DNA from: an uncultured Rhodothermales bacterium
GTDB taxonomy: Bacteria > Bacteroidota > Rhodothermia > Rhodothermales > VXPQ01
NCBI GenBank assembly: GCA_964591285.1
Contig: CAZQAS010000016.1
Location: 1-37,898, forward strand
DNA: 37,898 bases
Direction of reading: 5' to 3'
A program made the translations under genes and the position numbers. This document shows positions 5,275 to 24,151 of this stretch, one piece after another; positions within the stretch are counted from its first letter, which is position 1; every line of letters starts with the position of its first letter. Below the pieces are notes generated by a model that saw only the letters and a program-made list of their open reading frames with translations, made no database searches and was not told the DNA's origin.

Positions 5275-6330
5275 CTATTTGCGTCCGGCCAGAAAGTCCT
5301 CGACCAGCCGAACCGTTTCATCGCTGCCGATATATAGCGGCGTTCGCTGATGAAGTGCTTGCGGCGTCACCTCAAGAATGCGGCCTGCGCCGTCGGTGGC
5401 GCGCCCTCCGGCGTGCTCGACGATCATCGCCATCGGATTCGCCTCATACATCAATCGAAGCTTCCCGTCGGGGCTACTCTTGGTCGCCGGATAGATGTAG
5501 ACGCCGCCCTTCAGCAGGTTGCGGTGGAAATCTGAGACGAACGAACCGATGTAGCGCGTCTTGTACGGCCGACCGGATTCCGGATCCTCCTCCTGCATCC
5601 ACGAGATGCAGCGCTTCAGCCCCTCCGCCCACGAGTTGTAGTGGCCCTCATTGATCGAGTAGATCTTGCCGGACTTAGGAATGCGGATGTTCGGATGGGA
5701 TAGGAGAAACTCGCCGATCGAAGGATCGAGCGTGAAGCCGTTGACCCCGTTACCGGTCGTGTAAACGAGCATGGTCGACGAACCGTAGACCACGTAGCCG
5801 GCACCGATCTGCTCCGTGCCAGGCTGCAAGGCCGCCTTTGCCGACGCCTCGTCGATGCCGTCCTGCAACCGGTAGATGCTGAAGATCGTCCCGACCGACA
5901 CGTTCACGTCGATGTTTGAGGAGCCGTCCAGTGGATCGAGGAGCACGATATATTTACCGTCCTCTCCGTGGCTCATCTTCAGCGGGATGGCTTCCGCGTG
6001 CTCCTCCGAACCGATCAGACAGCATTCACCGCCGCGGCGCAGGGCGCGAACGAGCTCCGTGTGCGCGACCGCATCCATTTTCTGCTGCGTCTCGCCCTGC
6101 ACGTTGATCTCCCCTGTGTCCCCGTAAACGCCAACGAGGCCTGCACGCCGCATGTCCCGGTTGACGATCTTCGCGGCAACGCTGATGTCCCGAAGCAGTC
6201 GGGAGAACGCACCCGTGGAGTGCGGAAACTTCCGCTGCTGTTCGATGATGAACTGTTCGATCGTCTTGAACTCGCCCAGATCGGAGACGACCTTGCCGTT
6301 CGATCCTCGAGATGTCGTAGTGTATTCCAT
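5275..6330 (-). CDS. fbp: fructose-1,6-bisphosphatase class 1
   Basis: Contains TIEQFIIEQQRKFPHSTGAFSRLLRDISVAAKIV, LDPLDGSSNIDVNVSVGTIFSIY and GGVYIYPA...GKLRLMYEANPMAMIVEHAGG. I place the start at the ATG at 6330 (MEYTTTS). The upstream 51 codons of the tracked ORF look non-coding. Confidence 0.95.
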   Translation of the reverse strand: MEYTTTSRGSNGKVVSDLGEFKTIEQFIIEQQRKFPHSTGAFSRLLRDISVAAKIVNRDMRRAGLVGVYGDTGEINVQGETQQKMDAVAHTELVRALRRGGECCLIGSEEHAEAIPLKMSHGEDGKYIVLLDPLDGSSNIDVNVSVGTIFSIYRLQDGIDEASAKAALQPGTEQIGAGYVVYGSSTMLVYTTGNGVNGFTLDPSIGEFLLSHPNIRIPKSGKIYSINEGHYNSWAEGLKRCISWMQEEDPESGRPYKTRYIGSFVSDFHRNLLKGGVYIYPATKSSPDGKLRLMYEANPMAMIVEHAGGRATDGAGRILEVTPQALHQRTPLYIGSDETVRLVEDFLAGRK

Positions 6331-6424
6331 CGGGTGGTGATCTGTGACTGATGCTGAGCTTCTCCGCCAATAACTTACGGATGGAAGCGGTTCCGTACGC
6401 GCGGTGATAATACGGTAAACGGTG

Positions 6425-6458
6425 CGCCTGGGGCGCTTTGTGCCTGCGCCCCCAGGCG
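6425..6458 (-). terminator. GC-rich hairpin downstream of the DUF2064 gene, candidate intrinsic terminator
   Basis: 6425-6436 (CGCCTGGGGCGC) pairs with 6446-6458 (GCGCCCCCAGGCG). This gives 12 bp with one bulge and a 9-nt loop, about 22 nt after the stop at 6480. On the minus strand it is followed by ACCGUUUACCGUAUUAU, only a moderately U-rich tail. Confidence 0.45.
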
Positions 6459-6479
6459 GGTGCACATCTGAGTTGCGGC

Positions 6480-7220
6480 TCAAGAGCTTACACTGCGCAG
6501 CCAGTGATACTTTTTGGCCAGGTCACGCAGCACGCCGCGGGTGCGAGGTGCCAAGTCCCCACTCGCCTCCAGATCTCCGAGGAGCTTCGGCAGATCTTCC
6601 GGCCGGTCCACGTCATACCATGGGCGCAGAACGGTCGCTCGTGCGGATGCGGCCTGAATGCGCCGCAAGGTCTCGTTAAAGACGTTGTCGTGGCTGTAGT
6701 TCAGGCCCCGAAAGAGTTCCGGACGCGCCCGGGTCATTCCAAGGAGATAGTAGCCTCCGTCCTCTGCCGGTCCGATCACGACGGATTCGGCGTCGTCGAG
6801 CGCATCGAACGAGTCCTCAATGATAATGGGCGGAAGCGTCGGGTGATCGGTCCCGACGATGACGACCCGGTCATATCCCGACGCGAATGTTTCGGCAAAG
6901 GCTCGCTGCATTCGTGTGCCGAGATCGTCACCGCGCTGCTCGAAAACGGCCACCCCGGCAGGCAGGTCCAGCGCCAAACGGCCGGCTGCGCGCGATCTTT
7001 CATCGGCGGGCAACCCACCACTCTGCGCGCTCACTTCCGCGGTACGGCCCGTCAGATAGAGGCGCACGTCCATCGACAACCGTGCGTATTGCTCCAACGC
7101 GTCCTCAATGAAGGCCTTATACAGATGCGTGGCTTCCTCGGGCGTGATCTCGGTCGTAAGGCGCGTCTTCACGTCGCCGATGACGGGCACTTTTCCGAAG
7201 ACGATCAGCGCCGGGCTCAT
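6480..7220 (-). CDS. DUF2064 / TIGR04282-like nucleotidyl(glycosyl)transferase-fold protein
   Basis: Starts MSPALIVFGKVPVIGDVKTRL and continues ...VVIVGTDHPTLP...GPAEDGGYYLLGM. This pattern is characteristic of the DUF2064 family. Its start overlaps the stop of the upstream cysteine desulfurase (ATGA at 7217-7220). Confidence 0.7.
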   Translation of the reverse strand: MSPALIVFGKVPVIGDVKTRLTTEITPEEATHLYKAFIEDALEQYARLSMDVRLYLTGRTAEVSAQSGGLPADERSRAAGRLALDLPAGVAVFEQRGDDLGTRMQRAFAETFASGYDRVVIVGTDHPTLPPIIIEDSFDALDDAESVVIGPAEDGGYYLLGMTRARPELFRGLNYSHDNVFNETLRRIQAASARATVLRPWYDVDRPEDLPKLLGDLEASGDLAPRTRGVLRDLAKKYHWLRSVSS

Positions 7221-8383
7221 GGCGCGACCCGCGCCGGCCGGACCCTCCTGATGACGCGCTCGAGTGCCTCGATCGTGCGATCCACATCCTCCTCAGTGGT
7301 GCCCTTCCCCACGGAAAATCGGACGGCCGCCGCGGCCGTATCCCGTGGTAAACCGATCGCCCTCAGTACGTGGCTCGGCTCGACCGCCCCACTCGTGCAG
7401 GCTGATCCCGCGGAGGCGAAGATGCCTTCCATGTCGAGATTGAGCAGCAGCATCTCCCCGTCGACTGGTTCGCCGTCGATCGGCGGAAACGCTACGTTGA
7501 CGATGTGCGGCGCCACTTCGGCAGAATCCACGGGCGTATTGATGCGTACCGCTGCTCCCGAAAGGCTGCGAATCCCCGCGATCAGGCGGTCACGCATGCG
7601 GACTGCGTGCTCGCGCCGGTCGTCGGCCTCGTCAAGCGCCAGGCAAAGCGCCTTTGCGAAGCCGACGATGGCCGGGACGTTTTCCGTGCCACCGCGGCGC
7701 CCTCGCTCCTGTGCACCGCCTTCGAGCAGCGGGCGCACGTCCGCACCACCCCGCACGAACAAGACGCCGATGCCCTTCGGGCCGTAAAATTTGTGGCCGG
7801 AGATCGTCATTGCATCGAGGTCCACCCCGTCCGGGCGGATCATCCCATAGCCCGCCGACTGCACGCCGTCGCAATGGACGGCCCATCCGCGCGATCGGCA
7901 TAACGATACAACCTCGTCGATGGGTGAAATCGTGCCGATCTCATTGTTTGCATGCATAATGGATACGAGACCGGCCTCGTCGTCAAATGCATCCATTCGT
8001 GCTTCGATTACCGCAGGAGGCACCACGCCGGATTCATCCGGTGCAAGGACGGCTACCGGTCGGCCCGCCGCCTCCATCGACTCGGCCGCGCGCAGCACGG
8101 ATTCGTGCTCGGCTGCGCACGTCACGAGGGGGCCGTGCGATCCCTTAAGTACCGTGTTGTTCGCTTCGGTCCCGCCGCTCGTAAAGACGATCTCACCGGG
8201 CGCCGCCCCGAGAAGCGCCGCGACCTGCTCCCGGGCCTGCTCAACGGCGAAGCGCGCCTTTCGACCCAGCGTATGTACCGAGGAGGCGTTCCCGTAGGAT
8301 TCCCGCAGATGCGGCAGCATCGCCTCGAGCACACGTGGATCGAGAGGCGTCGTGGCAGCGTGATCCAGATAGATACCGTTCAT
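7217..8383 (-). CDS. cysteine desulfurase (class V aminotransferase, NifS/IscS-like)
   Basis: Contains MNGIYLDHAATTPLDPRVLEAM, the PLP-lysine block ISGHKFYGPKGIGVLFVR, and the active-site cysteine loop ASAGSACTSG. I prefer the ATG at 8383 over the TTG at 8395. Confidence 0.9.
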   Translation of the reverse strand: MNGIYLDHAATTPLDPRVLEAMLPHLRESYGNASSVHTLGRKARFAVEQAREQVAALLGAAPGEIVFTSGGTEANNTVLKGSHGPLVTCAAEHESVLRAAESMEAAGRPVAVLAPDESGVVPPAVIEARMDAFDDEAGLVSIMHANNEIGTISPIDEVVSLCRSRGWAVHCDGVQSAGYGMIRPDGVDLDAMTISGHKFYGPKGIGVLFVRGGADVRPLLEGGAQERGRRGGTENVPAIVGFAKALCLALDEADDRREHAVRMRDRLIAGIRSLSGAAVRINTPVDSAEVAPHIVNVAFPPIDGEPVDGEMLLLNLDMEGIFASAGSACTSGAVEPSHVLRAIGLPRDTAAAAVRFSVGKGTTEEDVDRTIEALERVIRRVRPARVAP

Positions 8384-13849: not shown

Positions 13850-16800
13850 CTAGAAAAGGGCGCTCAATTGTAACTGCATCGTATGGATGACCGGCGCATT
13901 GGACGGCGAGCGGCCGTCGTAGGAAAACGAAGCGCGCAGGTATTCATTGATCGTGTATTGTCCTCGGACCGACCAGAGGTACGACCGACCGGGTCCGCGC
14001 CCGTCCGTCAATTCGTACTGGGCGAGTCCCACGGCTTCTCCGGTGAGCGCAATGTCCGCCGCCTCCGCACGGGCCGTCATCTGAAGTCTCCGCGGCCGCG
14101 TGTACCGAAGCTCGAGCGGCATTTTGATGATACGCACACGTCGGTTGCCAATCTCGTCGTTTTTCCTGGCGAATTCCGGCGCAGCTACGAGACGCAGGTT
14201 CGGGGTGAATGCGTACGAGGCCTCGGGCTCGATGCGCACCGCGCCGATGTCGTAGCGGCGCGAGGCAAAGGACTCGCTCAGGAGCCGGTCCCGCTCCGCT
14301 TCCAACAGCGCCCGGAACGCCCAATCAGCGTGCGGGCGGAGGCGGCCCTCGATCCTCCCTGAATGTACGAACCGCTCCTCTTCACCGGCAGCAAGCTCAC
14401 TGAGGCTGCGAAGTTGGCTAAACGAGATGTCGACGCCGTAGTTCGGCCGTCCTCGAAAGATGAAAACGTCCTGGCCGATCCGCAGGCGTCCGTTCATCGT
14501 GTGCTCCGGGCTCCGGAAGCGACTTAGATCCAGCAGATAGATGCTGGTCAGATTTGGATCGCGCGTCTTTTCGCGGACCTCCAGCACGGTGCGCGTCGTG
14601 AGCTCGGACATCCACCGTTGGAAGGGCGTCGTCGGCTGCGGCCAGAGCCGGCGCGGGGCGAGCTCCAGCCGCAGGCGCGCCTGGACGTTAACCACAGAGG
14701 TGAGATTATCGGACGGGATGAACGTTCGCACGTACGTGCCTTCGTTCGGCAGGCGCTCCGGTATCATTTCGTCCACCTGCACCAGCCCGTCGCCGTTGGC
14801 ATCCTCCCAGACATACTGGCCGATCTCCGGTCCCGTGCGCACGTAGATCTCCTGCAGTGTCGGCGTGCGTTCGGCCATGGCCTCATACGCAGCGTTGATC
14901 TGCACGGCCCGTTCGAAGGGCCGGTAGTTGGTGCCGAGTCGGAGAATGAGCGACTCGACGTCCTCGCGATTTTGCTCGATGCGAAACGGCTCCGTAAATC
15001 TGCGCGATCGAAAGCCGACATTGCCGTCGAGGTCGAACGTGCTCGACGGACGATAGGAGACCCTAGTCTGCCCGGTCCAGGCCGTCGCCGCCGGGCGCAC
15101 GTCGCCGTCGATCCAGTCCTCCTCGGTGCGAAATTCGACGTAGCCGTCGATCTGGATCTCCTCGTCGGTCCATCCTATGCCCGGCCGGTATTCGACGAAC
15201 GTGAACGACGGGCGCGCCAGGCTGTCGAGGTTGGTGAAGCGCTGACGGCGCCGCTCGTGCTCGATCTCCATGCTGGGCACCAGGCGGCCGGCGGCGAGCG
15301 GGTAGCGGACGATGCCCGCCTGACGCAGCCAGCGACCCGTCTCCTCGAGGAGGTCGTCGCGGCTTCCGATGAGCTCGAAGCGGTAATCGAGATGGGGGAA
15401 TCCGGCTTCCTGCGTGACGAGCGTCGCGGCGCGGCGCATTCCCTCGAACCCGTCGCCTAACGAGATCCGGCCGAGCTCGACTCCGGCCGTCGTCTGTTCG
15501 AAGAGATCCACCACGACGTCGGCCTCGTCGATGGTCTCGCTTTCTGCGCCGACGACCCCCTCCGCGGCGGTTACCCGGCGCGCGTTTAGATTCCAGCGCC
15601 GCTCAAATTCGACGGGCCGGATGCGATTGAACGCCTCGAAGCTGCCGCCGACGAAGCGACGTCGGAGGCGCCCCGAGACGCGCGCCGGGCCGAGGTCGAC
15701 GCCTTTGAGGCGCGCCCCGACGTGGTAGGCCCCGCCCAGATCGTCATTGTCGTCGAGCGGCGAGAGCCGGTTCTCGTCATGCGCGGACTGCGCCCACTCG
15801 CCGAAAAGCTCCAATCCGGTGATCGGTTCGACGGCGCCGTGGAGATCCACCAGCCGCTGCTGTTTCGGTTTCTGGAGGATGCGGATGGGCAGGTAGTCGC
15901 CTCCGCCGGGTCCGCGGTACTCGTAGAGGATGCCGTTGACCGATCGGCCGACGCGCGCGTAGCTGCCGAGGCCGCTGCCGACCCGGCTGAAGCGCACGCG
16001 GTAGACCTCGTCGCCGGCCTCGGGTGCGCGGTCGAGTGCCACGTAGATCGTGTCTCCACCCGTGATCTCGCGCCGATACTGCACGTACGGCGCCTCCGCA
16101 TCGAATTCGACGCGCTCGGCACCGGGTGCGGCGGCGAGGCCGTCTCCTGCGCCGACGAGGGCGAGCGAATCCTCACGACCGAATCCGAATTCTTCAGCGA
16201 AGTCGCGGCTGTCCGCCTCGCGAATCACGGAGGCGCCGAAGCGTGCCCGCGGCGCTCCGTCGGCGGCACGCCAGAACTGGGCCTCCGCCCGGGATCCGAG
16301 CAGCGTGCGTGTGAACTGGCCGGTCGAGTACTGGAACTCGACCTTGATGCGCTTGTCCGCCGTGATGATCACGTTAGGCGTGAAGGTGATCTCGGCCGTG
16401 GCGTAGTCGATCGTGTAGTCGTTCGTCTCGCCGCGCGTGAGCTGCAGGCCGTCCAGATATACGGTCTCGGAGCCGGGCACGACGAGCACGAAGCGTTCGC
16501 CCTCAGCACCTTCGAGCCGGTACGGACCCTGCACCCCGTCGATCGGCTCGATCTCCTGCGCGCGGAACGTTCCGCGCGAGGTGGCCCCCGCCACGGTGAC
16601 GTGGCCTTCGGCGAGCACCGGCCCGGCCGGCACGTCGACGGTCGCCGAGGCGCCCTGAAGCTTGCGATCGAAGCGCGCGAATTCACTGGAGGCGAACCGG
16701 AGATCGAAGTCGCCGAGCTGCGCCCTCCCGTACGGTGCGTCGATACCGATGAAGACCCGGTCGAACTCCTCGATGCGCTGCGTCGTCCCCTCCGGCAGGA

Positions 16801-17356
16801 TGGGCGTATTCTCGTCGGTGAGCATGGCCTGAAAGTCGACGCCTTCGGCGACCTCTCCGGAGAGCTCCATCCGGAGGCCGGACTCGACGGTTACGTCCCG
16901 ATTGCTGCCGGCGAGAATGCCGCGTGTGATCGAGCCGCGATGCTGAAGGCTCGAGCCGGACGGCGGCGCGAGGATGCGCTCGTCGGCGTCTCCGGCGGCC
17001 TGGTCGTCCGTCGCTCCGGACGTGTCCGGGGGCGTGATCGTGTACAGCCGGTAGGCATCCTTTAGCCGGAACGGCAGCGTGCGGTAGGTCGCAATGATCT
17101 GCTCATCACCTCCAAGTTCGTCGATCCACAGGCGCGCGAATCGATAATCGATGCGGTAGGCACTCGTATCCAGGGATACGCCGTCGACGTGGACGACCTC
17201 GGAGCCCGGTATGATGACCGGCGTCAGCTGGAACGGCTGCGGAGCGGCCGCCGAAAGTGTGTCACGACGGACGTCGGGCGCCGGCAGGTCCTGGGCGAAT
17301 GCGGAGCCTGCGACGAGTAGCATCCCGAGCAGGGTAGCAACCGATCGGCCGTTCAT
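13850..17356 (-). CDS. large (1168 aa) hypothetical outer-membrane beta-barrel protein
   Basis: Signal peptide MNGRSVATLLGMLLVAGSAFAQ. The C-terminal two thirds show a long alternating beta-strand pattern rich in Arg, Tyr and Gly. The C-terminus is ...VIHTMQLQLSALF, with the terminal aromatic residue typical of OMP sorting. I could not recognise a family-specific motif. Confidence 0.7.
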   Translation of the reverse strand: MNGRSVATLLGMLLVAGSAFAQDLPAPDVRRDTLSAAAPQPFQLTPVIIPGSEVVHVDGVSLDTSAYRIDYRFARLWIDELGGDEQIIATYRTLPFRLKDAYRLYTITPPDTSGATDDQAAGDADERILAPPSGSSLQHRGSITRGILAGSNRDVTVESGLRMELSGEVAEGVDFQAMLTDENTPILPEGTTQRIEEFDRVFIGIDAPYGRAQLGDFDLRFASSEFARFDRKLQGASATVDVPAGPVLAEGHVTVAGATSRGTFRAQEIEPIDGVQGPYRLEGAEGERFVLVVPGSETVYLDGLQLTRGETNDYTIDYATAEITFTPNVIITADKRIKVEFQYSTGQFTRTLLGSRAEAQFWRAADGAPRARFGASVIREADSRDFAEEFGFGREDSLALVGAGDGLAAAPGAERVEFDAEAPYVQYRREITGGDTIYVALDRAPEAGDEVYRVRFSRVGSGLGSYARVGRSVNGILYEYRGPGGGDYLPIRILQKPKQQRLVDLHGAVEPITGLELFGEWAQSAHDENRLSPLDDNDDLGGAYHVGARLKGVDLGPARVSGRLRRRFVGGSFEAFNRIRPVEFERRWNLNARRVTAAEGVVGAESETIDEADVVVDLFEQTTAGVELGRISLGDGFEGMRRAATLVTQEAGFPHLDYRFELIGSRDDLLEETGRWLRQAGIVRYPLAAGRLVPSMEIEHERRRQRFTNLDSLARPSFTFVEYRPGIGWTDEEIQIDGYVEFRTEEDWIDGDVRPAATAWTGQTRVSYRPSSTFDLDGNVGFRSRRFTEPFRIEQNREDVESLILRLGTNYRPFERAVQINAAYEAMAERTPTLQEIYVRTGPEIGQYVWEDANGDGLVQVDEMIPERLPNEGTYVRTFIPSDNLTSVVNVQARLRLELAPRRLWPQPTTPFQRWMSELTTRTVLEVREKTRDPNLTSIYLLDLSRFRSPEHTMNGRLRIGQDVFIFRGRPNYGVDISFSQLRSLSELAAGEEERFVHSGRIEGRLRPHADWAFRALLEAERDRLLSESFASRRYDIGAVRIEPEASYAFTPNLRLVAAPEFARKNDEIGNRRVRIIKMPLELRYTRPRRLQMTARAEAADIALTGEAVGLAQYELTDGRGPGRSYLWSVRGQYTINEYLRASFSYDGRSPSNAPVIHTMQLQLSALF

Positions 17357-17624
17357 GAAGGGCTAACGATAGCTCTCGTGTAGGAGAGGAGATGAAACGG
17401 AGAACGTCGTAGCGGTCGCGAATAGAGCGGTAGGCGTCGAAGGGTTGCGGAGGAGAATTGCGTACCGCCTGTACTGGTATCGGGGCGGGGTGTTTCTCCT
17501 GGATTTGCGGGCCGGCGGCGGAACGCGGCCGCATCGAAGCCCGGTTCCAAGTTGCGGAGCGCCGGGTCCATCGGGACGCCGAAGTTTCAGAAATACTACG
17601 CCCGCACGTGGAGCCGCGCGAGCG

Positions 17625-17724
17625 GATTTGCGTAGCTTGTGCGCGTGATACGTTTCGCGTGCGGTAACGCCATAACTTGTGCGCGTAATAACGCGAGAAC
17701 TTGTGCACGCGGCACCATTTGCGA
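17625..17724 (+). promoter_or_regulatory. triple direct repeat CTTGTGCRCGY, flanked by ATTTGCG repeats, immediately upstream of the serine-hydrolase gene
   Basis: CTTGTGCGCGT occurs at 17636-17646 and 17676-17686, and CTTGTGCACGC at 17700-17710. ATTTGCG occurs at about 17625 and about 17716. A small palindrome CGCGTAATAACGCG lies at 17682-17695. The region ends about 20 nt before the ATG at 17746. Confidence 0.4.
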
Positions 17725-17745
17725 GAAGTGAAAACGGGCATCGAG

Positions 17746-18600
17746 ATGACATCCGAATTGGGACGACAGATCGAATCTACGGCGGCCGACGCCGGTGCCG
17801 GCGCGGCGTCGGTGGCGTTCTACGACTACGCCACGGACACGTCCTGGAGTTACCGCGGAGCGCGCTGGTATCACGCCGCGAGCACGATCAAAGTGGCGGT
17901 GCTCGTCGGACTTTTCGCCGCCGTCGAAGAGGGCCGCTTTCGGCTGGACGATCGCCTGCACGTGCGCAACCGGTTCTTCAGCGCGCACGACGGGTCGGCT
18001 TATTCGGTCGGTTCGGCGCGTGATTCGAATTCCGAGGTACATGCGTCCGTCGGGAAGCTGATGCGCATTCGCGCACTCGCCGAGCACATGATCGCAACCA
18101 GCAGCAATCTCGCGACCAATCTCCTGCTCGACCTGGTCGGCGCCGGAGAAACGCAGGCCGCGCTGAAGGAGCTCGGCATCTCCGGCATCGATCTGGTCCG
18201 CGGCGTCGAAGACGATGCCGCCTTCGAGGCGGGGATCAACAACCGCGTCACGGCCGAGGGGCTCACGCGCCTGTTTCGCCTGATCGAGGATCGGCAGACG
18301 TTTTCCAAAGGGGCGGCCGAGGCGATGCTCGACATCCTTCACAAGCAGGAATTTAGTAGTGGCATTCCCGCCGGGATTCCGGAATCGGTCCGAAACGAAA
18401 CGCAGTTCGCGCACAAAACCGGCGACATTTCGACGGTCAACCACGATGCGGGCCTCGTGTACCTGCCGGATCGGCCTCCATACGTCGTGGCCATCCTGAC
18501 CGAGTGGGCCCCGGATGCTTCGAATCGCCGAGAAACCGTGGCTCGTATCTCGGAAGCAGTGTATTCCTTCGTCACGGGTCCGGAAGTTCATTCATCATGA
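17746..18600 (+). CDS. class-A beta-lactamase-fold serine hydrolase, no signal peptide
   Basis: The three active-site motifs occur in canonical order: SxxK (AASTIKV), SxN (ATSSNLA) and KTG (AHKTGDI). An E-x-x-x-N omega-loop-like block FEAGINN is also present. The N-terminus MTSELGRQIESTAADAGAG is not hydrophobic. I prefer the ATG at 17746 over the TTG at 17701. Confidence 0.8.
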   Translation: MTSELGRQIESTAADAGAGAASVAFYDYATDTSWSYRGARWYHAASTIKVAVLVGLFAAVEEGRFRLDDRLHVRNRFFSAHDGSAYSVGSARDSNSEVHASVGKLMRIRALAEHMIATSSNLATNLLLDLVGAGETQAALKELGISGIDLVRGVEDDAAFEAGINNRVTAEGLTRLFRLIEDRQTFSKGAAEAMLDILHKQEFSSGIPAGIPESVRNETQFAHKTGDISTVNHDAGLVYLPDRPPYVVAILTEWAPDASNRRETVARISEAVYSFVTGPEVHSS

Positions 18601-18618
18601 TCCAGATCTGCCGCCGCC

Positions 18619-19230
18619 ATGACTGACGCCATAACGATCCCAGGCCTCGCAGTCGTCGACGGCCGCGAACTAGCGAAGCCATACAGAAAGCTGCTGCGTC
18701 CCGGAGAGACGGTCACCGATGCGGAGGGGCAAGACGTCACGCTTCCGACGTACTTCTACGAGATCGACTCCTGGCAGCGGGCGCGCGGAACGGAGATGGC
18801 CCCGAATTTCGGGCTGTACGAGTTCATAAGTATCGACGTGCGGGAGGCGCACCTGCTGCGCTCCTTCCCGCGCTACGTGCCTCTCGCGCTCGCCCATCTT
18901 GCCGCCCACCTCGCGCTGCTGCGCAGCAGGCTCGGCACGTACGTGCACGTGGCGGCGAACGGAGGATACCGATCCCCCTCGCACGAAGTCGGCCCGGAGG
19001 CATCGGCCCATTGCTGGGGCACAGCCGCAAATATATATCGTATCGGTGACGATTATCTGGACACAGACGAGGCCATCTCGCGGTACACGGACATCGTTCG
19101 GTCCACGTTAACGGCCGCCAACATACGGCCGTTCGGCCGCAGGCCGTGGGGGACGATCGACCATCTGCACGTGGATCTGGGACGATACGTCGTGCCCCCG
19201 GAAAAACCGTACGCCGTCGAAGATGGATGA
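18619..19230 (+). CDS. M15/LAS-family (D-Ala-D-Ala carboxypeptidase-type, Peptidase_M15_3-like) metallopeptidase-like protein with a variant metal motif
   Basis: The blocks FGLYEF, LRSRLGTYVHVAANGGYRSPSHEV, SAHCWGTAAN and IDHLHVDLG match the LAS pattern SGYRS..N...SxHxxGxAxD...HVD. The exception is Asn at the Asp position. No signal peptide is present. The gene starts 18 nt after the upstream gene. Confidence 0.65.
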   Translation: MTDAITIPGLAVVDGRELAKPYRKLLRPGETVTDAEGQDVTLPTYFYEIDSWQRARGTEMAPNFGLYEFISIDVREAHLLRSFPRYVPLALAHLAAHLALLRSRLGTYVHVAANGGYRSPSHEVGPEASAHCWGTAANIYRIGDDYLDTDEAISRYTDIVRSTLTAANIRPFGRRPWGTIDHLHVDLGRYVVPPEKPYAVEDG

Positions 19231-19290
19231 ATGATCCGGCCGCTGGACGACGAGCGATGAAGAGGACTGGATTCGGGAGGATGACGAGCC

Positions 19291-20616
19291 GTGGTGAAGA
19301 AGAATTCGCAGAGGCTGAAGGGCGAGCTCGAAGGAAAGCAGACCCACCTGGATCTGTCCGCGATCGGGCTCGAGGCGGAGTTCACGGTATTCATCGACGA
19401 GGAGCACGTAGAGCCGGAGCAAGTTTTTGCTGATCCGACGGGCTTCGTGCGCACCCCCCTCCTGCATCGCGTCGGAACGTCGTACCATCTGCCGACCGGC
19501 GGGGCCGTCTACTTCGATACCGGTGTCATCGAAATCGCCACGCCGGTTATCGAGATCGCCCCCGCTTGCGGGGCACGAGCGGGCCGGTCGCTCTGGGAGA
19601 GCATACGGTTCGTTCGGAACGAGCTGGATGCGTGGGAGGAGCAGACAGGCCGACGAGTACGGCTGGCCGGTTTTAGCGCACACTACAACATCTCGTTCGA
19701 AAACGGCCCTGGGACCGTCGATCGAGCGCCGCGGACGGTGGACGACCTCGCGCTCCTGCTCGTCCACATCCTTCCCGTTCCCGTTATGCTCCTCGCGGCA
19801 AACCCACGATCTACCGGAATCGGCGTGCGCCCGCGCGGCGAGCGGATCGAAGTGACGGCCGACTTTACACCCAGTCCTGCGCTCATGGTCGCGGCGGCCA
19901 CCTTTATTACAGCGGTCGCACGCGAGGTCATGCGCGACCCTGCCTACCATCTCGGCTGGTTGAATGAGCCGGGCGTTCCGGTCATCGACGGATTCTCGCC
20001 GATCCCGCACACCACGCGAAACGGCTGGCTGGCTCGGTGGGATTGTTATTCGGCCAACCCGTTTCGAACGGCACCGTCCGAATCCTCCTGGCGGATCGTC
20101 GGCAGCGATCACCCGCTCAGTCTTCGAGAGATCGGTAAGGAGATTTACGAAGCATTTCGGCCCGCCGTACGCCGAATTTCCGACCCGTTCACACGCCGGC
20201 TGTTGGATTCTGTTTTTCTGCGAAAGGCGCCGGTTTTGCTGGATCTGCCGGATCGGCCCGCCGCGTACGACGACGTCGGCAATCTCTGCTTCTGGGACGA
20301 CCTCTTTCCCGAAGGCTCGCTCACCCGGTCCCTGTACGAGCGCGTCCTCATCCGAGCGATCGCCGGCGACGTGCTCGAGCTGAGCGGGCGGCGGTACGTG
20401 CCGGTCGGCATGCGGGGCTGGTCGGAGGTCGTCTTCGAGCGGCTGCCGGAACGCACACGGCAGCGCTTCTCGGTCGATTTCCTCAGCAGCCAGCTGGACC
20501 AATGGGAAGGCGGACGTTCCGCTCGCAGCGCCCGGGGCAGGCGGTCCCGCTGTGGGCCACCGAAGCGGCGAGCACGCCGCATCAGCGGTACACCCGGTAC
20601 ACGCGATTCGCCGTGA
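19291..20616 (+). CDS. glutamine-synthetase-fold carboxylate-amine ligase-like protein (GCS2 / PafA-Dop-like)
   Basis: GTG start preceded by GGGAGG 10 nt upstream. The motifs are IGLEAEFTVF (GxExEF/Y strand), GGAVYFDTGVIEIATPV (compare GxRxYxDxxHPEYxTPE of Pup ligases and E-I-x-T-x-P of GCS2) and GFSAHYNISF. The Arg-rich C-terminal tail overlaps the convergent NHL gene by 35 bp. Confidence 0.6.
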   Translation: MVKKNSQRLKGELEGKQTHLDLSAIGLEAEFTVFIDEEHVEPEQVFADPTGFVRTPLLHRVGTSYHLPTGGAVYFDTGVIEIATPVIEIAPACGARAGRSLWESIRFVRNELDAWEEQTGRRVRLAGFSAHYNISFENGPGTVDRAPRTVDDLALLLVHILPVPVMLLAANPRSTGIGVRPRGERIEVTADFTPSPALMVAAATFITAVAREVMRDPAYHLGWLNEPGVPVIDGFSPIPHTTRNGWLARWDCYSANPFRTAPSESSWRIVGSDHPLSLREIGKEIYEAFRPAVRRISDPFTRRLLDSVFLRKAPVLLDLPDRPAAYDDVGNLCFWDDLFPEGSLTRSLYERVLIRAIAGDVLELSGRRYVPVGMRGWSEVVFERLPERTRQRFSVDFLSSQLDQWEGGRSARSARGRRSRCGPPKRRARRISGTPGTRDSP

Positions 20617-21502
20617 CGGCGAACAGCGCGCCATTGCCGGTGGCGGCGACGTCCACGAGGCGCTCCGAGATCATTGGCCGCAGCTCCCTGAGGAATCTTC
20701 CGCGACGATCAAAGACGTGGATGGCGTCTGCCGTAACGGCGTAGACCTCCTCTTGATGGCCCGCCACAGCCACGAGTCCGGCGAGGCGTCCGGCGCCGAT
20801 CGTATGCGTGTGCGAGCCGAATTGATCGTAGACCAGGACCGCACCGCGCCCGCGATCGGCCACGTAGAGCTGCGACTCCGTATCCGCCCACAGAGAGACC
20901 GGCTCGCCGAGCACGCCCGAGCCTGCATCGACGTCTCCGATGACGGCGGTGAGGCTTCGATTCTCGTTCCACATCAGGACGACGTTCCGATCCGCGTCGA
21001 TGGCGGCGATCTCGTTAGAGCCGAAGGAGGCCACGGCAATCGGCATGCCGGTCGTTCCGCTCCGGGGATCGACGTCGCGGCGCCGGTAGGTGATCCTTCC
21101 ATCGTCGCCCGGGCGACCGCGTGTGAGGGGGATGGATCCGAGAAAGGCGTGTGATCTCGAGAAAAGCTGGATGCGGCCGTTACCGGCGTCGGCAACCAGC
21201 AGGACGAGGCCGTTTGTCGGGTCGACGTCCATCGGCCGATCGAACGAGCTCTCGCGCGATCCGGGGCCGCCGATGCGTTCGACGAGCAGGCCCGTGGTAT
21301 CGAGCTTCACGATGACGTGCCGTCCTGCATCGGCCACGTACAGTGCGCCGAACGGATCGGACTCGATCCCACGAGCATCATCAAATCGTACGAACGGCAG
21401 CGGAACCGCCGCCACCGTGTCGATGGATGCACCTGAACCTGCGTCTGCCGGTCCCGCCTGCGGCGGCGGAAGCGACAGCATCAAGAGGAAGAGGAGGATC
21501 AT
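20582..21502 (-). CDS. NHL-repeat beta-propeller protein, secreted
   Basis: Signal-like N-terminus MILLFLLMLSLPPPQAG. It carries repeated blocks of the form P.G..VD..G.LYVAD..N.RI..F (ALYVADAGRHVIVKL, VLLVADAGNGRIQLF, QLYVADRGRGAVLVY). Its start overlaps the purD stop (ATGA at 21499-21502). Confidence 0.7.
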   Translation of the reverse strand: MILLFLLMLSLPPPQAGPADAGSGASIDTVAAVPLPFVRFDDARGIESDPFGALYVADAGRHVIVKLDTTGLLVERIGGPGSRESSFDRPMDVDPTNGLVLLVADAGNGRIQLFSRSHAFLGSIPLTRGRPGDDGRITYRRRDVDPRSGTTGMPIAVASFGSNEIAAIDADRNVVLMWNENRSLTAVIGDVDAGSGVLGEPVSLWADTESQLYVADRGRGAVLVYDQFGSHTHTIGAGRLAGLVAVAGHQEEVYAVTADAIHVFDRRGRFLRELRPMISERLVDVAATGNGALFAVTANRVYRVYR

Positions 21503-22782
21503 GGGATCGGCAGTCCCTTCCGCCCTATGTCGCGGCGGTACTGCATGCCGTCAAAGGAGATGAGCGCCGTGGCGGCGTAGGCGCGCTCGAGTGCGCTTTG
21601 GAGATCGTCGGCCAGCGCCGTGACGCCGAGCACACGACCACCCGCCGTCACAACGCGCCCTCGATCGTCCAGTTTCGTGCCTGCGTGGAAGACGTGCACG
21701 TCGGGAAGGCTCGCCGCCTGGTCCAGGCCGTCGATGGGGAAACCCGTTTCATAGTCGCCCGGGTATCCGGCCGAGGCGAGTACGACGCACACCGCGGACC
21801 CGGATCGCCGGCTTCCTTCGATGCTCCCGAGATTGCCGCCGGCCATCGCGCGAAACAGCGCCGCACCGTCTCCGGCGAACAGCGGCAAGAGCACCTGCGC
21901 CTCGGGATCACCTAAGCGGCAGTTGAATTCGACCACCTTGGGCCCCTCCGAGGTGATCATCAACCCGCAGTAGAGCACGCCCGTGTACGGGTCGCCCTCC
22001 TCGTCCATCGCGCGGAGCGTCGGTTCGATGATGCTTCGACGAACCTGCTCCAGAATCTCGTCCGTCACCACGGGCGCCGGCGCGTAGGCGCCCATCCCGC
22101 CGGTGTTCGGACCGCGATCTCCCTCGCCGATTTGCTTGTGGTCTTGTGCGGGCGCCAGCACGACGTAGTCGCGTCCGTCCGTCAGCGCGAACACGCTGGC
22201 TTCCTCGCCTTCCATGTACTCCTCGACGACGACCTCCTCGCCGGCCGGCCCGAATTCACGGTCCCGGACGATCATCGTGAGGGCCTCGCGTGCTTCCGAG
22301 ACGGATGTACACACGATGGCCCCCTTGCCGCCGGCCAGTCCGCTCGCTTTCACGACGATGGGTGCGCCCTGCTGCTCAACGTACTCGACGGCCTCATCAA
22401 GCCGCTCGGCTTCGAAGGTGCGGTGGGCCGCCGTCGGAATTCCGTGGCGCTTCATGAATGCTTTGGCGAAGGCCTTGCTACCTTCCAGGCGCGCCGCGCC
22501 GGCCGTCGGGCCGACGATCCCGAGGCCCTCGTGGCGAAAACGATCGACGATCCCCAGCACGAGCGGCTTCTCCGGCCCGACGATGGTGAGGTCGACCTCG
22601 TTTTTACGGGCGAAGGTGAGGAGAGCATCGACGTCGCTGGCCTTGAGGTCGACATTCTCTGCCGCCTGGCCGGTACCCGCATTGCCGGGCGCCGCGAAAA
22701 TGCGTTCCACCTCTGCGCTCTTCGAAAGATACCAGACGAGCGCATGCTCGCGTCCGCCGCTTCCCACCACTAAGATTCGCAT
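21499..22782 (-). CDS. purD: phosphoribosylamine-glycine ligase
   Basis: Starts MRILVVGSGGREHALVWYLSKS. It contains the ATP-grasp blocks VVKASGLAGGKGAIV and GPNTGGMGAYAPAP, and ends with the C-terminal GGRVLGVTA block. Confidence 0.97.
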   Translation of the reverse strand: MRILVVGSGGREHALVWYLSKSAEVERIFAAPGNAGTGQAAENVDLKASDVDALLTFARKNEVDLTIVGPEKPLVLGIVDRFRHEGLGIVGPTAGAARLEGSKAFAKAFMKRHGIPTAAHRTFEAERLDEAVEYVEQQGAPIVVKASGLAGGKGAIVCTSVSEAREALTMIVRDREFGPAGEEVVVEEYMEGEEASVFALTDGRDYVVLAPAQDHKQIGEGDRGPNTGGMGAYAPAPVVTDEILEQVRRSIIEPTLRAMDEEGDPYTGVLYCGLMITSEGPKVVEFNCRLGDPEAQVLLPLFAGDGAALFRAMAGGNLGSIEGSRRSGSAVCVVLASAGYPGDYETGFPIDGLDQAASLPDVHVFHAGTKLDDRGRVVTAGGRVLGVTALADDLQSALERAYAATALISFDGMQYRRDIGRKGLPIP

Positions 22783-22915
22783 GCCGGTTTGTTTTGCCTA
22801 ACTTAATTATCTCACTCAATTCGCAGTCTTCCACGCAGAGGAATGCCGGCCGCGGTGCTCGTCGCCGCCATCTGAGTTCATCCAGATTTTCTAAGCTACG
22901 TTGAACAGCGCTTTG

Positions 22916-24151
22916 ATGCTTCTCCGCCGCATCCTCCCAGGCGGGCTCTTCTTCATCCTCCTCCTACTCCCCGCCGAGCTGGCTGCCCAAGACACCTCAG
23001 CGGATGCGGCTGACGTACACCAGGTCGAGACCTCGTTCCTGTTCTACCCGGCGCCGATCTGGTCGAGAACGACCGGCTTCTCGGCCGGTGCCGGCTACGA
23101 GATCGAGAATTTCCCGATCCCCAACAGCTCGCTGCAGGCCACGGTAAAGCCCGGCCAGCACATGGGCCGCTATGCGCTGACCTACGCTCTCGGCAGTCCG
23201 TATGACGACCTCATCTACCTCGTACCTGACCTCTACTACGAGACCACGGGGCGCCACTGGTATTACGGAATGCACACGACCTCCTCAAGAGACGATGAGG
23301 TGGCGGTCGAGAAGGAGATGGTCAAGGCCGAGCTTCGTCTAGGCATTCAACCGTTTGGCGGTATGCTGCGACTGCAGCCCTCGGCGGCGTATGTCCGGCA
23401 TCACGTTCACGGATACGAAACTTTTAGCCCCGGAGCCGTGCAGCGCCTCTCTCCGCTCTCGCAGCTGTATCTCTTCTACGCGGCCGGCGAGACGTCGGAC
23501 GCGCCGCGGTATCAGGAAGGGCTCACGGTCGGTCTCTCCGGAGCACTGGATTTCCGGGATCGCCCCGCCCGCCCGCGCCGAGGGCTGCTCCTCGAAGCAT
23601 CCGCGCATCGATCCGAGTTCCGGGCCACGCCGAATATCGCGTTCGACCGGTTTGAAGCGTATGCCTACGGGTACATACCCGTTCGGGACAATACTTTCGC
23701 CGTGCGAGTGGTCGCTATGAACGTCAACCATAAATCGAAGGCCCCCATTCCGTTCTATATGCATCCCACGCTTGACGACCGTCTGCTTCCGGGGTACTCG
23801 CGCAACCGCTTCTACGGAAATGATCTTCTGGCGCTGACGGCGGAGTACGGTGTGACGCTCTTCCAGATGGTGGGTTTTGCGGCGATGGATGCGCTGCTCT
23901 CTGCCGGTGTAGGGAACGTGTACCTCGACATGTTCAGGGAATTCGAGCCGGCGATTAGTTTTGATGAGGATCCGGGCGCGGGACCGCGGTACCCGCTTCG
24001 CCCGAGCGTAGCGGCGGGATTCAACCTGCAGGGGTACGACACCGACGGCTGGAGCATGCGCGTCTTGCTCGGCTGGGGCGTGGAGGGCGTCCGCCTCGTC
24101 CGCTTCGCCTTCGTTCACGACATGCGCCGCGCCGAGATACAGACGCGGTGA
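22916..24151 (+). CDS. Omp85/BamA-TamA-like outer-membrane beta-barrel protein without obvious POTRA domains
   Basis: Signal peptide MLLRRILPGGLFFILLLLPAELAAQ. The C-terminal block LLPGYSRNRFYGNDLLALTAEYGVTLFQ...SAGVGNVY resembles the Bac_surface_Ag motif (LRGY..F.G......E.R.P). I prefer the ATG at 22916 over the TTG at 22901. Confidence 0.6.
   Translation: MLLRRILPGGLFFILLLLPAELAAQDTSADAADVHQVETSFLFYPAPIWSRTTGFSAGAGYEIENFPIPNSSLQATVKPGQHMGRYALTYALGSPYDDLIYLVPDLYYETTGRHWYYGMHTTSSRDDEVAVEKEMVKAELRLGIQPFGGMLRLQPSAAYVRHHVHGYETFSPGAVQRLSPLSQLYLFYAAGETSDAPRYQEGLTVGLSGALDFRDRPARPRRGLLLEASAHRSEFRATPNIAFDRFEAYAYGYIPVRDNTFAVRVVAMNVNHKSKAPIPFYMHPTLDDRLLPGYSRNRFYGNDLLALTAEYGVTLFQMVGFAAMDALLSAGVGNVYLDMFREFEPAISFDEDPGAGPRYPLRPSVAAGFNLQGYDTDGWSMRVLLGWGVEGVRLVRFAFVHDMRRAEIQTR

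Follow-up and report, generated by a model that had tools for sequence, protein, structure and literature searches.

PafA and Dop, the enzymes of pupylation, have been regarded as largely limited to actinobacteria plus a handful of further lineages, and YbdK/GCS2 and glutamine synthetase, which have the same carboxylate-amine ligase fold, are stand-alone, small-molecule enzymes. Ligases that work together with peptidase-type proteins are known from elsewhere: VanX is a cytoplasmic LAS enzyme that works with a ligase, and glutathionylspermidine synthetase/amidase (GspSA) is a cytoplasmic enzyme in which an ATP-dependent amide ligase is joined to a CHAP domain, i.e., a fold of the cell-wall-hydrolase type, and which acts on a gamma-glutamyl substrate. 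The principle of ligating first and trimming afterwards has precedents in ergothioneine biosynthesis, putrescine catabolism and glutathionylspermidine turnover. Here we analyse a stretch of 37,898 nt from an uncultured Rhodothermales bacterium (contig CAZQAS010000016.1, henceforth the window), in which three adjacent genes (henceforth the trio) encode a beta-lactamase-like serine hydrolase (gene 1), a protein of predicted LAS/M15 fold (gene 2) and a protein of predicted Dop/PafA-like fold (gene 3). An earlier reading of the sequence, which we refer to as the original prediction, had described these genes as a cytoplasmic cassette coupling two peptidase folds to an amide ligase. We find that the trio is conserved as a unit in three phyla and is therefore a real, uncharacterised pathway, which may handle cell-wall-type peptides inside the cell.

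Organisation and conservation of the trio

The trio and its one recognisable translation signal are arranged as follows:

17746..18600, + strand: gene 1, 284 amino acids (aa); frame open from TTG 17701, start set by the orthologue in the relative L174
18619..19230, + strand: gene 2, 203 aa, predicted LAS/M15 fold
19275..19280, + strand: GGGAGG, a Shine-Dalgarno-like sequence, seen by inspection 10 nt 5' of the gene 3 start codon (GTG)
19291..20616, + strand: gene 3, 441 aa, GTG start, predicted Dop/PafA-like fold

The open reading frames (ORFs) run from 17701 to 18600, 18619 to 19230 and 19291 to 20616, all on the + strand, and their coordinates bear out the three same-strand genes of the original prediction, with gaps of 18 nt (gene 1/gene 2) and 60 nt (gene 2/gene 3). 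The beginning of the cassette, which had been placed at 17625, needs correction: that position is out of frame with gene 1, and because the gene 1 orthologue in the syntenic relative L174 begins MTSDLG, we set the start at ATG 17746, where the window counterpart reads MTSELG. The N-terminus of gene 3, MVKKNSQRLKGE, lines up with its homologues in the family alignment. Third-position GC content (GC3) is 0.75–0.76 in each of the three genes. All motifs quoted earlier were located in the sequence, namely STIK, SSN and KTG in gene 1, GGYRSP, SAHCWGTAAN and HLHVD in gene 2, and IGLEAEF, GGAVYFDTGVIEIATPV and GFSAHYNISF in gene 3. As had also been claimed, none of the three products carries an N-terminal hydrophobic signal. 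Genes 1–3 are one autonomous, translationally coupled operon whose products are cytoplasmic.

A scan with one genome per species returned 347 genomes with a gene 3 relative. Among the best 80 of these 347 matches, assigned to phyla from record titles, 64 belong to Gemmatimonadota (including Longimicrobiales), 7 to Acidobacteriota (Blastocatellia and Thermoanaerobaculia), 4 to Rhodothermales and 3 to Bacteroidota, with 2 unclassified. The original prediction had made its case depend on the three genes staying neighbours in related genomes, and they do: by tblastn, genes 1, 2 and 3 follow one another in this order on one strand in 82 of 85 loci, i.e., in 82 of the 83 that are testable, since contig ends truncate two of the three exceptions and only one locus (L080) has gene 3 alone. 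The loci range in GC content from 0.34 to 0.77. In contigs that were looked up individually, a Beta-lactamase2 gene is followed by one of ~200 codons and then by a gene 3 homologue, among otherwise unrelated neighbours. Stop and start codons overlap between trio genes in many orthologues, and even the divergent members P0256 and P0249 still carry the whole trio. The closest relative with genomic context is L174 (69% identity), whose flanks are the same as those of the window. Plasmid and phage collections gave no match to the trio. Across three phyla, then, the trio has been inherited together as a unit, and its persistence among otherwise variable flanks agrees with the description of an autonomous cassette.

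The solitary gene 3 of L080, an Acidobacteriota metagenome-assembled genome, lies at 6001-7224 of that locus, where neither gene 1 nor gene 2 has a homologue within 6 kb upstream or 1.9 kb downstream of it. Three records that appear to be fusions of all three genes or of genes 2 and 3 (P0345, P0253 and P0364) were rejected as frameshift or assembly artefacts because their linkers are garbled across overlapping genes.

Gene 3 defines an unannotated family with a predicted Dop/PafA-like fold

The original prediction had assigned gene 3 to the glutamine synthetase fold and likened it to PafA. This stood for the predicted fold, to which Dop and PafA are nearest, and did not stand for sequence profiles, where Pfam gave nothing and a direct comparison reached only P 0.003. 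Specifically, gene 3 has no match in Pfam, NCBIfam, PADLOC or the PDB sequences, and searches of gene 3 and ten divergent members with Pup_ligase (PF03136), GCS2 (PF04107), Gln-synt_C, Amidoligase_2 and COOH-NH2_lig returned nothing at E up to 1. The only PDB sequences that came up with gene 3 or its family profile (MBD4, a sugar-binding protein and a serpin) were set aside as noise.

The family comprises more than 4352 homologues. The best 120 share 54–76% identity with the window protein, none of them has a Pfam domain, and source names, where given, are hypothetical; in an alignment of 40 members, mean column identity is 56% and more than 90 positions are invariant. When 1.84 billion representatives were searched exhaustively with HMMER, only 495 clusters, mostly fragments, came up at E up to 0.001. 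The 150 listed all belong to the gene 3 family, whole or in part, and none of them connects it to an annotated one (ten were tested, without a relevant Pfam match). Judged by these sequence comparisons, the family is compact and isolated in sequence space.

The AlphaFold model of gene 3 (predicted local distance difference test, pLDDT, 83.8; predicted template modelling score 0.83) gave a clearer picture. In a Foldseek search of the PDB its eight best matches were all Dop or PafA structures (E 2.9e-7 to 3.1e-6, probability 1.0, near full-length), ranked ahead of YbdK/GCS2 (2e-5 to 3.5e-4) and then of glutamine synthetases (from 5e-3). In hhalign comparisons with one PafA sequence and with 78 of them, the segments GxExE, YxDxG..E.ATP and HxN are co-linear between the two families (P 0.0033 and probability 9.7% against the 78 sequences). 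The single query was an M. tuberculosis PafA sequence, which checks as Pup_ligase (E 1.8e-171) and is 98% identical to environmental sequences. A strand of the form R-I-E-[VI]-T-x-D appears to resemble the RIEVRxPD and R.E.R..D strands of glutamine synthetase and GCS2. The invariant residues E28, E30, D76, E81, H131, N133, R180, R182, E187 and D191, which are putative catalytic positions, lie on or beside the model strands 24–35, 72–75, 79–83, 123–135, 176–182 and 185–191, an arrangement like that described for the curved active-site sheet of PafA/Dop (PMC3511204). These results support a Dop/PafA/GCS2/glutamine-synthetase carboxylate-amine ligase fold for gene 3; because the profile comparison is weak and Pfam is blank, the fold call is based mainly on the predicted structure.

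The C-terminal tail of gene 3 (residues 410–441) is basic and disordered, and many homologues end in Arg/Lys-rich tails (35% K+R), in contrast to the acidic tails of gene 2. Three homologues of 517–574 aa (P0243, P0244 and P0250) carry an Arg/Ala-rich, apparently disordered insert of ~120–170 residues between the WD..LFP motif and the RS.YE helix.

Gene 1 resembles PBP-A but lacks a signal peptide

That gene 1 has the beta-lactamase fold and resembles DD-peptidases was confirmed by a match to Beta-lactamase2 (PF13354; E 3.6e-46, 157.6 bits against a cut-off of 22) that spans profile positions 1-214 of 214. Its closest solved relative among PDB sequences is Tll2115/PBP-A (E 5e-21, residues 22-289), followed by class A beta-lactamases. 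The segments WFHAASTIK, TSSNLATN and KTGEIST are at least 90% conserved across 78 gene 1 orthologues, and in an alignment of these orthologues with TEM-1 the motifs STIK, SSN and KTG coincide with S70/K73, S130/N132 and K234-G236, respectively.

The features expected of a true beta-lactamase are less clear. Gene 1 scores 92.1 bits against NCBIfam bla_class_A, under the cut-off of 200, and the alignment of the omega-loop residue is ambiguous: the position of TEM-1 E166 is Val in gene 1, with a conserved E-D one residue later. The deacylation base is uncertain because position 166 aligns to Val. No signal peptide was seen in any of the 78 orthologues, whose start-adjusted N-termini, judged by inspection and not by a signal-peptide predictor, are short and hydrophilic and lead directly into the mature fold. 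Taken together, these sequence features indicate that gene 1 is a cytoplasmic PBP-A-like acyl-serine enzyme and not a classical exported beta-lactamase.

Gene 2 has a predicted LAS/M15 fold with an altered site

Gene 2 had been described as carrying the LAS/M15 zinc-peptidase signature. The fold part of this description stood, as judged from the model and Foldseek; the signature part did not, given that Peptidase_M15_3 stays below threshold (13.9 bits, under the cut-off of 23.2; E 0.059) and that Asn takes the place of a canonical Asp in almost the whole family. There is no NCBIfam match, and the only PDB sequences retrieved (Csy4 and fibronectin, both sub-threshold) were dismissed as chance. 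The family is also large (more than 2811 homologues) and none of its members is annotated.

The AlphaFold model, built from 38 homologues, has a pLDDT of 90.4. Against viral predicted structures (BFVD), Foldseek retrieved Peptidase M15A/M15 proteins (E 7e-4 to 2e-3, probability 1.0, template modelling (TM) scores up to 0.47/0.61), and against the PDB it retrieved LysB4, LysECD7, LdcB, ChiX and Hedgehog-N at E 0.05–0.2 with probability up to 0.97; nearly all top PDB matches are LAS/Hedgehog-N domains, including VanXYg (E 0.05–0.5). Because the model matches M15A/M15, LAS and Hedgehog-N structures, a LAS/M15 (Hedgehog/DD-peptidase) fold is supported for gene 2. At the predicted site, gene 2 has H131-x6-N138 where canonical LAS proteins have the metal-binding H-x6-D. 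The rest of the site is largely kept: D181-H182-x-H184 supplies both the catalytic D/E-x-x-H and the H-x-H motif, and among 121 homologues H131, D181 and H184 are each present in 120 and H182 in 109 (Gln in 10). Gene 2 further has ~60 extra N-terminal residues and an acidic C-terminal tail (22% D+E).

Genomic neighbourhood of the trio

We clustered the ORFs in the flanks of the trio loci and Pfam-scanned 78 immediate neighbours outside Gemmatimonadaceae. In the flanks of the 80-plus loci there is no universal fourth gene, no conserved small (Pup-like) ORF and no conserved proteasome-related family; nor does a Pup-like ORF, a proteasome gene or a Van gene accompany the trio. This agrees with the original prediction, which had noted the absence of a Pup-like ORF and of proteasome genes. 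Most flanking genes lie on the opposite strand, and the flanks vary.

The only recurrent neighbour is a Mur ligase gene, which we identified as mpl (TIGR01081, 429–463 bits against an equivalog cut-off of 388.7). It occurs within 6 kb of the trio in 41 of 85 loci, all of them Gemmatimonadota (including Gemmatimonadaceae and Longimicrobiaceae), and its arrangement varies: it may be adjacent and convergent, set apart by DUF1697 and glycosyltransferase genes, or placed upstream in divergent orientation. In Gemmatimonadaceae, moreover, 8 bp separate the trio from the DppB-like permease gene before it, which itself follows an SBP_bac_5 gene in the same operon (37 loci). The SBP_bac_5 protein is GsiB/DppA-like and scores best against the glutathione binder GsiB, with all scores under the cut-offs. 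DUF1697, the DppB-like permease gene and mpl are found in Gemmatimonadota only. In bacteria without AmpG, muropeptides are known to enter through an importer of the ATP-binding cassette (ABC) type that depends on a substrate-binding protein (PMC9790009).

The original prediction had set muropeptide recycling aside. This was correct insofar as AmpD and LdcA homologues are missing from the trio, and did not hold for the genomic context, given mpl in 41 of 85 loci and the peptide-ABC genes in the Gemmatimonadaceae operon. On the strength of this context we consider a link to recycling the best lead.

In L173 (4963-10924) and 36 similar loci there is a single permease gene, with no second permease or ATPase gene in the operon, and in Gemmatimonadaceae loci such as L173 a DUF1697 gene and two glycosyltransferase genes come after the trio.

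The two most divergent gene 3 homologues, P0269 and P0257, are without genes 1 and 2. P0269 (L166, 6001-9410) is convergent with a gene for a 363-aa MepA/M74-like LAS protein that lacks a signal peptide, and its position next to such a protein suggests a link to peptide or muropeptide handling. Beyond the LAS gene in L166 lie genes for a TIGR02594-family protein, a phosphopantetheinyl transferase and a non-ribosomal peptide synthetase (NRPS); upstream are MqsA-like and ParA/CbiA-like genes. P0257 (L168, 1-7287) lies in an island with two DndB-like genes, QueC and a PTPS/QueD-like gene, a context typical of 7-deazaguanine DNA modification or defence.

Flanking genes and upstream region in the window

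On both sides of the trio in the window the genes are on the strand opposite to it, as had been described, and the following features surround it:

13850-17356, − strand: 1167-aa signal-peptide protein with C-terminal Phe and no Pfam hit, flanking the trio on its 5' side
17357..17745, + strand: divergent intergenic region 5' of gene 1, with three direct CTTGTGCRCG copies
20582-21502, − strand: NHL-repeat protein, convergent with gene 3
21499-22782, − strand: purD (PurD), beyond the NHL gene

The 1167-aa protein looks like a large uncharacterised outer-membrane-type protein that is kept beside the trio in close relatives; its counterpart in L174 has 1157 aa and likewise no Pfam hit. Gene 3 and the NHL-repeat gene share 35 nt at their 3' ends (20582-20616), and the part of gene 3 inside this overlap encodes the basic, disordered tail, which many homologues do not have. 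Further downstream, a 416-aa signal-peptide protein (22901-24151, + strand) has no Pfam match at E 0.001.

The intergenic region presumably holds the operon promoter. Copies of CTTGTGCRCG lie at 17636-17645, 17676-17685 and 17700-17709, i.e., within the 110 nt before gene 1, and another at 2090-2099, so that the window has four copies against 0.28 expected from shuffles. These repeats could serve as an operator or as an element of the promoter; in the syntenic relative L174, where the intergenic region is shorter, they are absent. No match to a sigma-70-like promoter was found upstream of gene 1, and no riboswitch or leader was matched there by Rfam.

Proposed function and alternative explanations

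We tentatively propose, as possible rather than probable, that the trio is a cytoplasmic module that trims and re-ligates D-amino-acid or gamma-glutamyl peptides, e.g., peptidoglycan stem peptides. Gene 3 would use ATP to phosphorylate a carboxylate and would then couple this carboxylate to an amine. To our knowledge every characterised enzyme of the glutamine synthetase fold acts on a glutamyl gamma-carboxylate, and because all characterised members act there, this is the likely substrate group of gene 3. Less likely, gene 3 would hydrolyse an amide of the gamma-carboxylate in the manner of Dop, a type of hydrolysis described as unique within the superfamily (PMC7947786). Of the two directions we take ligation to be the probable one and give hydrolysis a smaller, still appreciable, chance. 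Gene 1, by analogy with PBP-A, would cleave D-Ala-D-Ala-type bonds in a shared substrate, in which gene 2, by analogy with LdcB, VanX and M15 endolysins, would cleave L,D or L-Ala-D-Glu-type bonds. The substrates would reach the cytoplasm by import, as stem peptides or comparable peptides of the D-amino-acid/gamma-glutamyl kind, and the module would salvage or edit them, feeding or paralleling Mpl-dependent recycling. We favour this proposal because the three folds cover three unusual kinds of stem-peptide bond, and because mpl and the genes of a peptide importer are the only ones to which the trio is linked recurrently.

Several observations weigh against it. The tie between gene 3 and Dop/PafA comes from a predicted structure, with a TM score of ~0.48 and a root-mean-square deviation of 7–9 Å, and the significance of the hhalign comparison between the two families is weak (P 0.003–0.009, probability 4–10%). 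In the gene 2 family, the Asp position of H-x6-D is Asn in 117 of 121 homologues and Asp in 3, and by its sequence gene 2 may be a peptidase whose metal chemistry is altered, or else an adaptor or binding subunit, perhaps non-hydrolytic. Genes 1–3 show no homology to AmpD, LdcA, MpaA or Mpl in Pfam or NCBIfam, where gene 1 matches beta-lactamase-type families only and genes 2 and 3 match no family significantly; we know of no ligase with an evident role in canonical recycling beyond Mpl, and of no step there that uses a glutamine synthetase-fold enzyme. As for the genomic context, mpl lies on the strand opposite to the trio, the trio has no mpl or ABC-transporter genes nearby in the window, nor in loci of Acidobacteriota, Rhodothermales and Bacteroidota, and the linkage in Gemmatimonadota could be inherited synteny. 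Finally, the ~60% identity of gene 3 across phyla would be unusually high for a salvage enzyme and would fit a macromolecular substrate too.

One alternative is that the trio makes or breaks down a small cytoplasmic metabolite unrelated to the cell wall (e.g., a gamma-glutamyl or D-amino-acid amide, an osmolyte or a signalling dipeptide) by ligating and then trimming it, which we regard as unlikely. The presence of small-molecule enzymes (GCS2/YbdK and glutamine synthetase) among the structural matches of gene 3 would fit such a role, as would the autonomy of the operon, which has no fixed neighbours outside Gemmatimonadota, the NRPS cluster beside a divergent gene 3 homologue and the preference of the Gemmatimonadaceae peptide-binding protein for GsiB, though below cut-off. 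However, a simple metabolite would hardly call for two distinct D-peptidase folds, the trio has no conserved companion genes for tailoring, export or regulation, and mpl is the only recurrent neighbour.

More doubtful still is a Pup-independent tagging system, in which gene 3 would be a PafA-like ligase that joins the carboxylate of a peptide or protein to target lysines, with genes 1 and 2 processing or deconjugating the product; the conjugated carboxylate would be encoded elsewhere or supplied by a disordered tail of the partners. The closest structures to gene 3 are indeed those of Dop and PafA, ahead of the small-molecule ligases, and conservation as high as that of gene 3 (~60% identity across phyla, more than 90 invariant positions) is what enzymes with protein partners typically show. 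The acidic tails of gene 2, the basic, disordered tails of gene 3 and the Arg-rich inserts of some gene 3 members point the same way; the tails, however, vary in sequence and length. Furthermore, no conserved small ORF lies next to the trio in the 80-plus loci, there is no proteasome, Mpa/ARC or Pup_ligase Pfam signal, and the partner folds are specialised for D-amino-acid peptides and are not isopeptidase folds. With similarly little confidence, gene 3 may be seen as the founder of a new branch of Dop/PafA-like enzymes that does without Pup and occurs in Gram-negative soil phyla; its two D-peptidase-fold partners would join it in a novel covalent modification, e.g., one in which a D-amino-acid or gamma-glutamyl peptide is attached with ATP to proteins or cell-wall precursors and is enzymatically taken off again. 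If true, this would be a new prokaryotic conjugation/deconjugation pathway and not simple salvage.

A Van-type resistance or precursor-reprogramming cassette, in which a substitute ligase would work with a cytoplasmic VanX-like dipeptidase and with a beta-lactamase or DD-peptidase, seems highly improbable. The pairing of VanX with a ligase, the presence of VanXYg among the fold matches of gene 2 and the retention of SxxK, SxN and KTG in gene 1 are offset by the cytoplasmic location of gene 1 and its 92 bits against a class A cut-off of 200, by the glutamine synthetase fold of gene 3, which is not ATP-grasp, by the lack of VanH, VanA and VanRS homologues nearby, and by the chromosomal, vertically stable character of the trio, of which the plasmid and phage collections gave no copy. 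A role in defence against phages or in conflict between bacteria, suggested by the DndB/QueC/QueD island of P0257 and by the ParA-like and MqsA-like genes near P0269, has next to nothing to recommend it, since both divergent homologues are without genes 1 and 2, genes 1, 2 and 3 have no PADLOC match at E up to 1, plasmid and phage copies of the trio are lacking, and chromosomal synteny is stable in close and distant relatives.

Novelty and significance

All three proteins belong to known fold superfamilies, and the families of gene 2 and gene 3 are unannotated in the 2025–2026 libraries searched. A search of the literature for the three-gene combination found nothing relevant, with the proviso that an earlier mention is possible, e.g., in the amidoligase survey of Iyer et al. 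2009. The trio is a putative amidoligase-plus-peptidase system whose function is undescribed. On the points that had been named as decisive for the original prediction, gene 3 matches the glutamine synthetase fold by predicted structure, the trio is syntenic in related genomes and it maps onto no characterised pathway.

The gene 3 family has more than 4000 strongly conserved homologues, yet it is without annotation in Pfam, NCBIfam or source records. It is locked in an operon with cytoplasmic proteins whose folds usually act on cell-wall D-amino-acid bonds outside the cell, and it occurs in soil and sediment phyla that are abundant and poorly studied. Should the trio handle stem peptides as proposed, its chemistry would reveal an alternative route of stem-peptide salvage or editing in Gemmatimonadota, Acidobacteriota and Rhodothermota; otherwise it would reveal a new amide-bond conjugation system. 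It would also show the role of the Asn-substituted LAS domain.

Comparison with known systems

For gene 3, the best structural matches are PafA/Dop (PF03136; PDB 4BJR, 7OYH and 4B0R), which are of similar size (~410–450 aa) and in which the GxExE N-terminal strand, the YxDxG...E.ATP segment and the HxN strand are co-linear with those of gene 3. Unlike PafA/Dop, gene 3 has no Pup_ligase match at E 1, occurs in non-actinobacterial taxa and has partner genes of D-peptidase fold, and unlike PafA/Dop loci, the trio comes without Pup, Mpa or proteasome genes. YbdK/GCS2 and glutamine synthetase also share the predicted fold of gene 3, with no sequence-profile match, and we know of no such enzyme that is coupled to peptidases of the gene 1 or gene 2 folds.

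The partners depart from their relatives in comparable ways. PBP-A (Tll2115), a class-A-beta-lactamase-like DD-peptidase of Thermosynechococcus, has the SxxK, SxN and KTG motifs in common with gene 1; PBP-A is exported, whereas gene 1 and all 78 orthologues are without a signal peptide, and only gene 1 has the family-specific insert (HVRNRF...RD.N) and the conserved R-GVED loop. With LAS/M15 peptidases (VanX, LdcB, the M15A/M15C endolysins LysB4 and ChiX, and Hedgehog-N), gene 2 shares the predicted fold, the GYRS motif, the His at the S-x-H position and D-x-x-H/H-x-H at the C-terminal strand; it differs in H-x6-N, the sub-threshold Pfam score, the N-terminal segment of ~60 residues and the acidic tail.

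Of the whole systems, GspSA resembles the trio in concept only: it is built from ATP-grasp and CHAP folds in one fused polypeptide. Canonical recycling (AmpD, LdcA, MpaA and Mpl, with import by Opp/MppA or YejBEF-YepA) has no proteins homologous to those of the trio, and the linkage of the trio to it is lineage-restricted. Like that pathway, however, the trio is cytoplasmic, its predicted folds are suited to the unusual bonds of stem peptides, and in Gemmatimonadota mpl and genes for an SBP_bac_5 protein and a permease can be found close to it.

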